Source of the DNA: Eledone cirrhosa
Taxonomy: Eukaryota
Direction of reading: 5' to 3'
Length of the DNA stretch: 64,000 bases
Assembly: GCA_964016885.1 (NCBI GenBank)
Contig: OZ024745.1
Span: 20,646,001 to 20,710,000 of the forward strand
Shown: one piece after another, positions 193 through 58,081 of the stretch
How the letters are laid out: the number at the start of each line of letters is the position of its first letter
Numbering within the stretch: position 1 is the first letter of the stretch
The notes under the pieces: model-generated
The model's database searches: none
Told to the model about the DNA's origin: nothing
What the model saw: the letters and a program-made list of their open reading frames with translations, nothing else
Made by a program: the position numbers and the translations under genes

Positions 193-237
193 AACGGTGC
201 TGATGATAGCTAACAAGCTTGAAACTAGTACATCGTT
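193..237 (+). ncRNA. Type I hammerhead ribozyme
   Basis: AACGGTG-CTGATGA-TAGCT-AACA-AGCTT-GAAA-CTAG-TA-CATCGTT: stem I AACGGTG/CATCGTT, stem II AGCT/AGCT, palindromic stem III ACTAGT. Confidence 0.85.
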
Positions 238-704
238 CCTGTGTCAGTGTTGAACAAAAAGGTGACGTGGTTGCCTTAACACCGTATGGCATAAATTCAG
301 GCTGTTCGCTTTGTTGACAAACAAACGAACAAAGCGGCCGGCGTTATAATAAACGCCGGCTAAACTGATGCGTGCATATATGTATGTGTACCTGTATGCA
401 TATGTGTATATATATGTATATATATATATATATATATATATATATATATATATATATATATATATATGCATGCTACTGTACGTATGTATACATATATGTA
501 TGTACGTATACATACATACTTACATTTAAGTAAGTGCCATACTAAGAGTGAGAAATGAAATTTCGTTTTCATTTTTTTCAACTTATCGTTTTCGGTATGC
601 CTGACCGATTTAACTCACTCAATATGCAAATTAGGCTGCTCAGCCGTTAATTTTCATAAGGAAAGTATATACTTTCGAACGTTCAACTATCTGGCAGATG
701 GGTA

Positions 705-749
705 AACGGTGCTGATGATAGCTAACAAGCTTGAAACTAGTACATCGTT
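705..749 (+). ncRNA. Type I hammerhead ribozyme (second copy)
   Basis: Identical to 193-237; stem I extendable via CTGGCAGATGGG/CCTGTGTCAG. Confidence 0.85.
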
Positions 750-1311
750 CCTGTGTCAGTGTTGAACAAAAAGGTGACGTGGTTGCCTTAACACCGTATG
801 GCATAAATTCAGGCTGTTCGCTTTGTTGACAAACAAACGAACAAAGCGGCCGGCGTTATAATAAACGCCGGCTAAACTGATGCGTGCATATATGTATGTG
901 TACCTGTATGCATATGTGTATATATATGTATATATATATATATATATATATATATATATATATATATGCATGCTACTGTACGTATGTATACATATATGTA
1001 TGTACGTATACATACATACTTACATTTAAGTAAGTGCCATACTAAGAGTGAGAAATGAAATTTCGTTTTCATTTTTTTCAACTTATATATATATATATAT
1101 ATATATATATATATATATATATATATATATATATATATATATATATATATATATATATATATATATATATATATATATATATATATATATATATATATAT
1201 ATATATATATATATATATATATATATATATATATATATATATATATATATATATATATATATATATGATATATATGTATATATATATATGTATGCGTTAT
1301 TATATGAATAT

Positions 1312-1500
1312 GTGGTGAATTGGCAGTGTCGGTAGAGGGTCGGACGCCATGCTTTGCAGCACAGTTACGTCCCTTTACGGACTGAGTTCAAATGCCGCCG
1401 AGGTTAACTTTGCCTTTCATCCTTACGGGGTCGATAAAATAAAGTACCAGTAATGCACTGAGTAATTGCTGGCCTTGTGCCAAAAGTAGAAACAGTTATT
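1312..1500 (+). mobile_element. tRNA-derived SINE, family A
   Basis: A-box-like TGGCAGTGTCGG, B-box GAGTTCAAAT, core CTTTGCCTTTCATCCTTACGGGGTCGATAAAATAAAGTACCAG; flanking direct repeat TTATTATATGAATAT; several copies in window. Confidence 0.85.
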
Positions 1501-2520
1501 ATATGAATATATATATATATATATAATATATATGTTTATATGTATATATATATATGTATGCGTTATTATATGAATATATATATATATATATATATATATA
1601 TGCGTTATTATATGAATATATATATATATATATATATGTACATATATATATATATATATATATACACACATACACATGACAATATGTATAAGTTTATTCA
1701 TTATTTGGTTTTTCTTCACGAAATTGTATTTAACTGTGGTGCCAAGTGTTTTGGCGTCAAACTTCTGCTGGGTCAGTCCGCAAAAGAATAAACGAGAAGA
1801 TGAGGGAGATATATCATTAAGAAAAAATATTACAAAGAAAATATGTGATAAAGAGAGCAAGTGGGAGGAGGTGGGAAAAGTGAGAGGAAGAGGGTGAAAA
1901 AGAGATTAGCAGGTATGGAACGATAGCGAGTGATCAGGAGAAAGGGGAGAGAGAGAGAGAGAGAGAGAGAGAGAGGAGAGTGAGGGAAAGAGAGCCGGGA
2001 GAGAGAAAGAAAGAGGGGAGAGAGAAAGGAGAGAGAGAGAGAGAGAGAGAGAGAGAAAGGGGAAGAGAGAGAGAGAGAGAGAGAGAGAAAGGGGAAAGGG
2101 AAAGAGTGAGAGAGAGAGAGGTGAGAGAGAGAGAGGTGAGAGAGAGAGAGAGAGGTGAGTGAGGGAAAGAGAGCAGGGAGAGAGAAAGAAAGAGACGGAG
2201 AGAGAAAGGAGTAGGGAAAGGGGAAGCGAGAGAGAGAGAGAGAGAAAAACATGGCTTCCCTTCTAAAAAGATTTTATCAATATAAGGTTAAGGGAATTTA
2301 TTAGAGAGAGTGGCATGACGAGGTACAAAAAGAGAGAGAGAGGGTGAGAGAGAGAGGGAGGGAGAGAGAGTACAGGAGACAACAGCAGAGAGAGAGAGCA
2401 GGGGTGTGAGGAAGAGAGAACAAGGGAGGGAGAAAGAAAGAGAGAGAGTAGGGGGAAGAGAAGTTGAGATTAAGAGTGAGACAGTGATAGTGGAATAGGG
2501 AGAGCTGGAGAGTGAGAGAA

Positions 2521-2703
2521 ATAATTGTTTCTACTTTTGGCACAAGGCCAGCAATTATCCCAGTACATTACTGGTACTTTATTTTATCGACCCCATAAGG
2601 ATGAAAGGCAAAGTTAACCTCGGCGGGATTTGAACTCAGATCATAAAGGGACGTAACTATTCTGGAAAGCATGTCCGACCCTCTACCGATACTGCCAATT
2701 CAC
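2521..2703 (-). mobile_element. tRNA-derived SINE, family A
   Basis: Reverse complement of 1312-1500; target-site duplication GAGAGTGAGAGAAATAAT. Confidence 0.85.
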
Positions 2704-55493: not shown

Positions 55494-56757
55494 ACTATTT
55501 TCCTTCTTTTATCAACTCTCTTTTTTCCCCTTGCTAGACTTTTATTGATTTACTACAATCTTCATTTTAATACGTTATCACTTTTTTCTATTAAATACAT
55601 CCTATAGATATATATATATATATACACACACACACACACACATACACATATATATATATATATATATATATATATATATGTGTGTGTGTGTGTGTGTGTG
55701 TGTGTGTGTGTGTGTGTGTGTGTGTGTGTGTGTGTGTGTGTGTGTGTGTGTAAATATATATGCAAATCTGTATGTATAGCACGTATATGTATATGTATAT
55801 ATATATATATATATATATATATATATATATATATATATATATATATATATATATATATATTCATGTATATATATATATTCATGTATATATATATATATAT
55901 ATATATATGTGTGTATATATACATATATACATACATATATATATATGTATATATATATATATATATATATATATATATATACAGAGAGAGAGAGAGAGAA
56001 AGAGAAAAAAGAGGGAGAGAGAGAGGGGTAGAGAGAGAGAGAGGGGAAGAGAGAAAGAGAGAGAGAGAGAGAGGGAGAGAGAGAGAGAGAGAGAGAGTGA
56101 GTGAGAGAGAGAGAGAGAGAGAGAGAGAATGATTATTCTATTTATTCTATCGTTGGTTTTCTTTTATTTAATTTTCTGACGCTTTTCTAGGGCTTCTTTC
56201 AAATTGTACATTAAGTCAAAGTGTTTATCCTTTTCTTTTTCTTATTAAACACGATCGATGTCCTTTAATTTTACTCTAATCTCTTTTTATTTCTCAGAAG
56301 TTTTTCCTCTATGATTATATTTCCTATATTTTCTTAATTTGTAGTATTCTAATACATACATGTTTTCTATCTTTTCAACAAAACTTCGTAAGTCTTCCCG
56401 TTCTCAGTTTAAAACTTATTTGAAAAGCTTCTCTACATCGTCTTGCTATCGGAATGGAGTGAGCATATTTAATCTCACACCAGCGCGTCATTTATATTTA
56501 ACTATATACAAAAACTACAACTGTAGTATATGTTAGCTGGTTAATTGTGGATATTGCTGTTATCATGCTGTTATCATATATTTCTTGTTCTAGTAACTTA
56601 TTATCTAGTACCTTTTAATTAGATCTTTCATCGAGAATGTTTGAAATAAATAATTTAATTTTCTAAGTGGGATAATTTTATTAACAGATTTATTCGTTTA
56701 GAATTTCTTATTCTGAAACTATCCGCATATCTTCTTTGGAAGATCCGCTAAAATAAT

Positions 56758-57191
56758 TACTGCACATAGTCGAATATAAGACGATCCGAATATAAGTCCA
56801 TCCGAATACAAGTCGATCCGCATATAAATCGCCCCCATTGGATTGGCAGTATCGGTAGAGCGTCGGACGCCATGCTTTCCAGCATAGTTACGTCCCTTTA
56901 CGATCTGAGTTCAAATCCCGCCGAGGTTGACTTTGCCTTTCATCCTTATGGGGTCGATAAAATAAAGTACCAGTAATGTACTGGTTAATTGCTGGCCTTG
57001 TGCCTAAAGTAAAAACAATTATTTTATGTCTGTGAAATCCAAACCCCATTTTAAGCCGAGGCATCTAATCAACACATTGTTTAGATGGCGTGTATAAGCG
57101 CCCTCCCTCTTCCCATTTTAACATCGATTTTGTGTGTGTGTGTGTGGGGAGGGGGTCATATTCCGTAGCTTATATTCGAGTATATGTGGTA
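56758..57191. mobile_element. pogo/mariner-type MITE interrupted by a SINE
   Basis: Termini TACTGCACATAGTCGAATATAAG / CTTATATTCGAGTATATGTGGTA; subterminal CCGAATATAAGTC repeats. Confidence 0.55.
56840..57023 (+). mobile_element. tRNA-derived SINE, family A
   Basis: Same sequence as 1312-1500. Confidence 0.85.
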
Positions 57192-57261
57192 CTTGCTAAT
57201 CAGTTAAAGTACATGTTGCTGTTTGTACATAGATATATACTCATGCGTTTTATACATCTCA

Positions 57262-57505
57262 ATGCGCGTAGCTTTGTGATTAGGGTGTTGAGTTCACAAT
57301 TGTGTGTTCGGTTCCAGGAATGGGCCATGTGTCTTTGAGCAAGACACCCTTTTCCACGTTGAAATGAGTTAGGGTGTCACTGGTGCCAAGCTGTATCGGT
57401 CCTTGCCTTTGCCTTGGACAACATCGGTGGTGTGGGGAGATTGATAGTAATGGGTGACTGCTAGTCTTCCTCAAAATACCCTTGCCCGAGCTTGTACCTC
57501 GGAGG
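57262..57505 (+). mobile_element. Degenerate SINE related to family B
   Basis: GCGCGTAGCTTTGTGATTAGGG..GTTCGGTTCC..GTGTCTTTGAGCAAGACAC. Confidence 0.55.
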
Positions 57506-58038
57506 GGAAATTTATAGTTTCTTACAATTTGTGTGTGCGTGAATATGTCAGTGAGTTGGTTGACTGATCTCTACCCATATATATATATATATATATATAT
57601 ATATATATATGTATATATATATATATATATATATATATATATATATATATATATATATATATATATATACATATATATACATATATATATATATGTATAT
57701 ATATGTATATATATATATATATATATATATATATATATATATATATATATATATATGTGTATATATATATATATATATATATATATATATATATATATAT
57801 ATATATATATATATGTATATGTATGTATACACACACACACACACACATACACACACACATATATATATATATATTAGAAATTGGAATAAATGCTCTGAAA
57901 TAGCGATATATATGTGAATATAGACATAGAATATTCGAAAATATTCTGTATGTTTATAATAAACATTTTGAAGACCTAATCGCTATAGAATAGAATACGT
58001 CACGTATTACAATTAGATTCTCGATAAAAGCAAGGGAA

Positions 58039-58081
58039 GTAATCTACGCGTTTCATTCTTGTTAGAAATCATCAGGACTAC
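58039..58081 (-). ncRNA. Type I hammerhead ribozyme, first of 13 minus-strand copies (every 310 bp)
   Basis: GTAGTC-CTGATGA-TTTCT-AACA-AGAAT-GAAA-CGCG-TA-GATTAC. Confidence 0.88.

Follow-up and report, generated by a model that had tools for sequence, protein, structure and literature searches.

The window analysed here is a 64,000-nt stretch of the Eledone cirrhosa genome (GCA_964016885.1, contig OZ024745.1, positions 20,646,001–20,710,000, forward strand; coordinates below are counted from its first base). A search of both strands with a structural descriptor recovered 22 type I hammerhead ribozyme motifs in three families of repeat units, designated A (two motifs), B (one), and C (19). Each has the core CUGANGA...GAAA, a UH cleavage site, and three helices with helix I open. 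The A cores are on the plus strand at 200 and 712, 512 bp apart; the B core is on the minus strand at 38711; and the C cores are in a two-armed array, 13 on the minus strand (57873–61975) and six on the plus strand (61977–63762). Both the hammerhead and the class of element are known, and A, B, and C appear to be new members; what their insertions may record is how such elements move, with a Penelope-like element (PLE) as the candidate helper class.

Complete copies share one layout. In the A hammerhead at 700–752 (plus strand, predicted cut after 742), there are a distal helix, a UAA/U internal loop, a 6-bp stem I, a stem II of three pairs plus a U.U mismatch, the loop UAACAA, and a palindromic stem III. 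The complete B hammerhead (38671–38723, minus strand, predicted cut after 38681 on that strand) has the G10.1–C11.1 pair, and the C copy cited in the original prediction, which was made from the sequence alone, has its core at 58075 (58035–58087, minus strand, predicted cut after 58045 on that strand). The A copy at 193–239 (plus strand, predicted cut after 230) starts within stem I immediately after a (TA)n tract; the GG-bearing bulged distal arm that had been described for every hammerhead is present in the full copies and missing from this one. Fold z-scores are −3.1, −5.2, and −6.2 for full copies and −1.0 for the truncated copy. Coordinates, stem sequences, and the T-AACA-A loop are as originally quoted.

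The genome is 3.0 Gb in size, with a very high microsatellite content. Searched with the pattern CTGATGA-N14-GAAAC-NN-GT, it contains 38,818 matches, compared to 14 for a control in which the pattern was reversed, so that the motif occurs well beyond chance expectation. For covariation analysis, 27 variants were chosen by hand from 133 distinct ones, with preference for those found at multiple loci and with families A, A2, B, C, and D all represented. Over 15 pairs, 94.3% of cells are paired, compared to 33–47% in slid controls, and 11 of the pairs change on both sides; these counts are of sequences rather than events, and only about five lineages are represented. The predicted common architecture with covarying stems is thus borne out. 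Stem II has 4 bp and loop II 6 nt, and a tiny stem III is palindromic in all 27 variants, with three different central pairs. Stem I is counted as 6 bp, since the seventh of the pairs first proposed is present in only nine of the 27; the TTCC described as lying 3' of it overlaps the quoted stem in A and B. Distal to stem I is an internal loop, UA(A/U) opposite a single U, and then a 3-bp helix. At the base of stem II there is a U.U mismatch in A and C; the first helix II pair is mismatched in 17 of 27 variants.

The best Rfam match for all three families is RF02275 (Hammerhead_HH9), at 38.9 bits for B and 18.5 and 19.2 bits for the others. The units align to this model with its 4-bp stem II and 6-nt loop, and T-AACA-A is therefore better described as the hexaloop UAACAA; hammerheads with a shorter stem II segment and a G-C base gave only 25 genomic matches, many of them B deletion variants. 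Comparisons with published systems, here and below, refer to the accessible portions of the cited texts. The canonical metazoan type I hammerhead (PMC4209133) and HH9 share with these motifs a 6-bp helix I, a 4-bp helix II, a 6-nt loop Y-A-A-N-N-A, UA in the 5' strand of the internal loop, and a short palindromic helix III. Where HH9 has a 5-nt loop on helix III and three bases in the 3' strand of the internal loop, helix III here is 2 bp plus 2 nt and that strand is a single U. As read from sequence, the A, B, and C motifs have the published canonical metazoan architecture, which is ordinary in itself.

Loop II is not invariant, as had been claimed for its AACA. That sequence is found in 27,973 of the 38,818 genomic motifs (72%), AA(A/G/T)A in 5,190, and AAN(C/G/T) in 5,139; changes at loop position L1 (357), L2 (410), L6 (236), or L3 (106 with L2 kept, by subtraction) are rare. 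AATA, AAGA, AACG, and TACG loops occur in amplified, multi-locus subfamilies, and subfamilies with the loop UUACGA or AAAUAA are present at many loci, mobile despite changes at the first two loop positions. Genomic counts are weighted by the copies in young arrays, and a comparison of five lineage representatives was therefore added: seven of 10 loop positions are invariant, compared to two of 20 stem positions (Fisher p = 0.002). The conserved element is the loop U-A-A-N-N-A, which matches HH9, together with the UA(A/U)/U internal loop. Along with the covarying stems, this supports the original proposal of selection on RNA structure, presumably for the element's own mobility; there is no pointer to a host function. 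Canonical metazoan type I hammerheads are defined by a tertiary contact between loop II and stem I (PMC4209133), which makes such a contact the expected reading here; the natural loop variants are a ready mutational series for it.

Part of the resemblance among families is inherited. A and B are homologous outside the ribozyme, sharing a 59-bp island of 78% identity around the octamer ATGCAAAT. In A this is at 624–631 (plus strand), 88 nt upstream of the core, and in B at 38804–38811 (minus strand), 100 nt upstream; a promoter role is putative. The promoter of newt satellite 2 includes an octamer. An older, dispersed family, D, is 65–74% similar to A and keeps the octamer, and its stem I resembles that of C. 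C has no octamer, and its likeness to A and B is confined to the ribozyme. Since A, B, and D share descent, A and B are not independent tests of hammerhead conservation, and the case as first put is weakened to that extent. The likeliest reading is that all the families descend from a single hammerhead and have since undergone compensatory change. D (loop UAAUGA) was among 736 matches, at loci L148, L152, and L170; a divergent C-like unit with 69–80% identity and the loop CAACCA was seen at L023 (29–417) and L028 (2379–2773).

Consecutive units with a hammerhead in each are found in the window for A (two) and C (19), and elsewhere in the genome for B. The B unit, predicted at about 480 bp, is 479 bp in the window; it has one hammerhead and includes a 14-bp duplication, and genomic B arrays have periods of about 466–470 bp. 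Among the window's open reading frames, none of 150 aa or more is in B or C, and A is overlapped only by a microsatellite frame. No long terminal repeat (LTR), primer-binding site, or polypurine tract layout was seen in the units, the last two being judged by eye. A, B, and C are assigned to the non-LTR retrozymes because their units are non-coding, occur in tandem, and each contain a single type I hammerhead. Descriptions of these from coral, mussel, and axolotl (PMC7229834), and in a preprint (bioRxiv 10.64898/2026.07.22.740005), agree in unit organization, low GC content, thousands of copies, and several families, and a U.U helix II base is found in axolotl HHR_Amex2 (PMC7229834). The 470–510 bp units found here are longer than the 170–400 nt first reported, but within the preprint's range of 51–972 bp. 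Newt satellite 2 is likewise a tandem repeat that bears a hammerhead and has an internal promoter of snRNA type (cited in PMC2220036), comparable to the octamer-carrying A, B, and D but not to C.

Retrozyme families were also seen nested in or beside each other's (TA)n tracts (L035, L201, L023, L028), with a C array inside an A insertion at L201. Four tandem 494-bp units of 99% identity lie between (TA)n tracts at 14339–16302; no hammerhead was found in them by the descriptor or by the model R1, and they are possibly ribozyme-free passengers of the same machinery.

The ends of the insertions are not randomly placed. The 3'-most end of each arm was mapped for 97 locus-family entries, 10 ends being cut off or masked. 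All but seven of 134 uncut arm ends (127) are at two narrow sites per family, with 117 of the 127 running into (TA)n. These sites, numbered 1 and 2, are at unit positions of about 298 and 339–356 in A, 228–232 and 299–302 in B, and about 130–139 and 163–172 in C. Of 44 two-stranded entries, 42 have the minus arm before the plus arm and are thus arranged 5'-to-5'. In all 36 scorable 5'-to-5' insertions (eight A, 12 B, 16 C), the arms end at different sites, one each (p = 1.5e-11 at 50:50); one pair (L203), from an older, shorter A subfamily, requires a wider site-1 window. Of the other eight two-stranded entries, three have one end at neither site (L184, L201-A, L207), three have an end cut off or masked (L035-A, L177, L222), and the two in plus-then-minus order (L039, L194) also had one site per arm. 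The two-strand set is enriched by choice. A less biased set takes every A, B, and C insertion in the first 100 places listed; 15 of its 27 insertions are inverted (tally by eye). An inverted stub of 7–13 nt, ending at site 1, is present in a further two of these and in the window's B copy (11 ends inspected).

The window contains one insertion of each family. The A insertion (192–1086, plus strand) lies between (TA)n tracts and comprises about 1.7 units of 512 bp, its 3' end at site 2 (unit position 356). The B insertion (38382–38907, minus strand) has about 1.1 units, its 3' end running from site 2 (unit position 299) into (TA)n; a 13-nt inverted stub on the plus strand (38909–38921), a minimal second arm, matches B end site 1 and is followed by (TA)n. 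In the C array, the minus arm has 13.2 units of 310 bp with its 3' end at site 2 (unit position 172), and the plus arm, arranged 5'-to-5' with it, has 5.8 units and a 3' end at site 1 (unit position about 130–139). A microsatellite flank is repeated across this array (57816–57868 on the left, 63764–63816 on the right, with blocks of 32 and 18 identical bases), probably as a target-site duplication; such duplications can be judged only where the flanks are other than pure (TA)n.

Inner junctions, by contrast with the fixed outer ends, are at scattered unit positions, 13 of 18 being 16 bases or fewer from flush. In C, the modal unit of one arm is also that of the other in 14 of 14 arrays; arm pairs taken from different loci are identical in only 68 of 364 cases. 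At four of the 14 loci, the modal unit of both arms was absent from the other sampled loci. The longest arm seen has about 31 units. Some arrays contain interspersed variants and (TA)n tracts of varying length.

Two other kinds of inverted repeat were seen in the window. A short, (TA)n-flanked repeat family (71–190 and 39161–39370, and L031 7640–7970) forms a 5'-to-5' or partial inverted pair beside A and B insertions. A near-perfect 5'-to-5' inverted element at 19840–20285 has CTGATGA...GAAA in each arm (19946, minus strand; 20181, plus strand), without a stem I. These motifs, and further core-like ones at 43668, 63941, and 44640, fail both the descriptor and model R1 and were excluded from the hammerhead count.

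A 5'-truncated copy of a young, Hydra-type PLE is at 43826–44892 (plus strand), consisting of the endonuclease end (43826–44383) and the terminal repeat, and ending in (TA)n. At least 150 copies of this PLE in the genome have endonuclease parts of 95–100% identity, and their open frames reach 968 aa; other PLE families occur at 35–55% identity. A 928-aa frame, in a (TA)n insertion, includes RWK, DKT, a CxCX5C linker, CxxC, CxH, and a C-terminal endonuclease; a Pfam search with this protein matched no family. Motif reading against the text of PMC8557442 would place the copies at 43826 and L141 in the Hydra clade. Five of six long PLE copies examined carry an inverted copy with the terminal motif, and in five of five inverted PLE insertions one arm ends about 60 nt past this motif and the other 219–232 nt past it. 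An inverted, 5'-truncated copy, (TA)n targets, a tail between two 3' end or start sites, and a hammerhead near the 3' end are described for Hydra-clade PLEs (PMC8557442) and anole Poseidon (PMC11167929), and the anole PLE cuts and extends both strands, starting at two internal RNA sites that bound the tail (PMC11167929). A, B, and C differ from PLEs in that they encode no protein, that an arm of their arrays can reach about 30 units, and that their tails are 30–70 bp long.

The PLE terminal repeat (44630–44675 in the window, and L141–L146) contains a hammerhead-like core with CUUGAGAA instead of CUGANGA, and a palindromic stem III. The CUUGAGAA core is identical in every PLE copy compared, which leaves two readings: a variant of the core, or a dead motif that an active family has fixed. 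The core-like motifs at 43668 (plus strand) and 63941 (minus strand) have a G-C rich stem II and a weak stem I, with a relative of the latter at L083 and L178; they are probably terminal-repeat remnants of other PLE families. At L163, L238, and L239, a 16-unit A array borders at its 5' end on a fragment of PLE coding sequence, and no (TA)n separates the two. A PLE-retrozyme chimera was considered and rejected; the fragment has stops and no close relative among the sampled loci, making insertion of the array into an old PLE likelier.

Elsewhere in the window, broken LINE copies with endonuclease and reverse-transcriptase frames are found at 4279–6867, 32018–37398, and 46812–51153; from their motifs we take these to be L1/Tx1-like. 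There is a run of 200 N at 27192–27391, and a whole-window Rfam scan is dominated by microsatellite matches to miRNA models.

With a probability that we put at roughly 70%, A, B, and C are non-LTR retrozymes that spread as self-cleaved, circularized RNA, copied into (TA)n by a PLE enzyme. Arrays would be transcribed, perhaps aided by the octamer in A, B, and D. The hammerheads would cut after GUH, probably as dimers joined through the palindromic stem III, with the loop U-A-A-N-N-A docking on the UA(A/U)/U internal loop, and the monomers would be ligated into circles. A PLE endonuclease would then cut both strands within (TA)n, and the two cut strands would prime reverse transcription at separate sites on the RNA, one at each. 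Repeated passage round the circle would make each cDNA multimeric, and 5'-to-5' joining of the pair would yield a two-armed array in a single event. Copying by a PLE enzyme from both cut strands is supported by the end marks, by the one-site-per-arm rule shared with the PLE, and by the occurrence of the same unit in both arms. That the arrays record a general Penelope-type integration rule (two fixed RNA sites, one per strand), turning an RNA circle into a two-armed array in one step, we regard as about an even proposition. Among the sequencing runs listed for these units none was of RNA; four of unknown kind were inspected, of which three gave one 340-nt contig each (one unit plus 30 nt), and a low-level tandem DNA repeat would give the same result as a circle.

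Several points weigh against copying of self-cleaved circles by a PLE enzyme. Some concern the ribozyme: only 9,571 of the 38,818 genomic motifs have G10.1–C11.1, leaving 75% without it; many motifs end in the cleavage triplet GUU; stem III does not form in predicted folds of monomers; and none of the three families reaches the HH9 gathering score (52 bits). In the cited text, only one of nine Xenopus retrozymes was cleaved in vitro (bioRxiv 10.64898/2026.07.22.740005). Others concern the enzyme. In vitro, the anole PLE had no need of ribozyme cleavage and used unprocessed RNA as its main template, and its start sites were alike on both strands (PMC11167929). No sequence beyond AT-rich repeats is shared between the A, B, or C units and the one full PLE examined, and since other PLE families are present, PLEs are named here as a candidate class of helper rather than as one helper family. 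Tail length is 58 bp in A, about 70 bp in B, about 30 bp in C, and about 165 bp in the PLE, compared to 30–40 bp in print. Interspersed variants imply that a single monomeric circle is insufficient alone, and that there is turnover at the DNA level too. Finally, the insertion loci were the first listed places on two contigs, many of them picked for showing both strands, and the end-site windows were fixed after the data had been inspected.

The weak stem II bases and mixed arrays are what would be expected if the PLE enzyme instead copied uncut, linear multimeric transcripts, with the hammerhead weak or only occasionally active and circles not serving as template, and a homogeneous source array would also yield identical arms. 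We consider this unlikely. Lineages that are about 70% alike elsewhere, or that lack detectable homology outside the ribozyme, still show covarying stems and a conserved loop, which argues that the ribozyme fold is under selection; a linear template must also account for an arm of about 31 units, and for the four C loci whose modal unit, present in both arms, was seen at no other sampled locus.

If array growth is moved from RNA to DNA, single units would insert and then expand and invert in place by unequal crossover and fold-back replication, as proposed for satellites (bioRxiv 10.64898/2026.07.22.740005). Interspersed variants and varying (TA)n lengths do indicate some turnover of this kind, but as an origin for the arrays it is very improbable: fold-back predicts the same outer end on both arms, where all 36 pairs have different fixed ends; the inner junctions are scattered; and the window's C array is bounded by duplicated microsatellite flanks. 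A narrower doubt is whether loop II and the bulge are alike across families through common descent and A/U richness rather than because of a working tertiary contact. The homology of A, B, and D outside the ribozyme and the spread of the UUACGA and AAAUAA subfamilies to many loci would be compatible with this, but the excess of invariant loop positions over stem positions in five lineages, and the match of the same positions to the vertebrate HH9 model, make it improbable as well. Copying of circularized RNA by a PLE enzyme remains the preferred reading.

What moves animal retrozymes is an open question, on which this insertion anatomy bears. In the accessible literature PLEs are named only as "a strong candidate" (PMC7229834), the repeats are said to show no motif indicating a helper (PMC7761336), and the preprint offers co-occurrence and phylogeny, leaving the mechanism open (bioRxiv 10.64898/2026.07.22.740005). 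The words "ribozyme" and "retrozyme" are absent from the main text of an Octopus vulgaris repeat annotation (PMC13282606). The insertion ends, inversions, and two-site rule found here are not in the published retrozyme descriptions compared, and in the literature searched, which lies mostly outside subscription journals, neither retrozyme insertion ends nor a one-site-per-arm rule turned up. If the proposed mechanism is correct, the arrays would be direct genomic evidence for the machinery that moves animal retrozymes, and for rolling-circle reverse transcription. Exact reverse-transcription start sites can be predicted from these young, abundant families, and an intact PLE follows their one-site-per-arm rule; in vitro assays of a type that already exists could thus be used to test which element is the helper.

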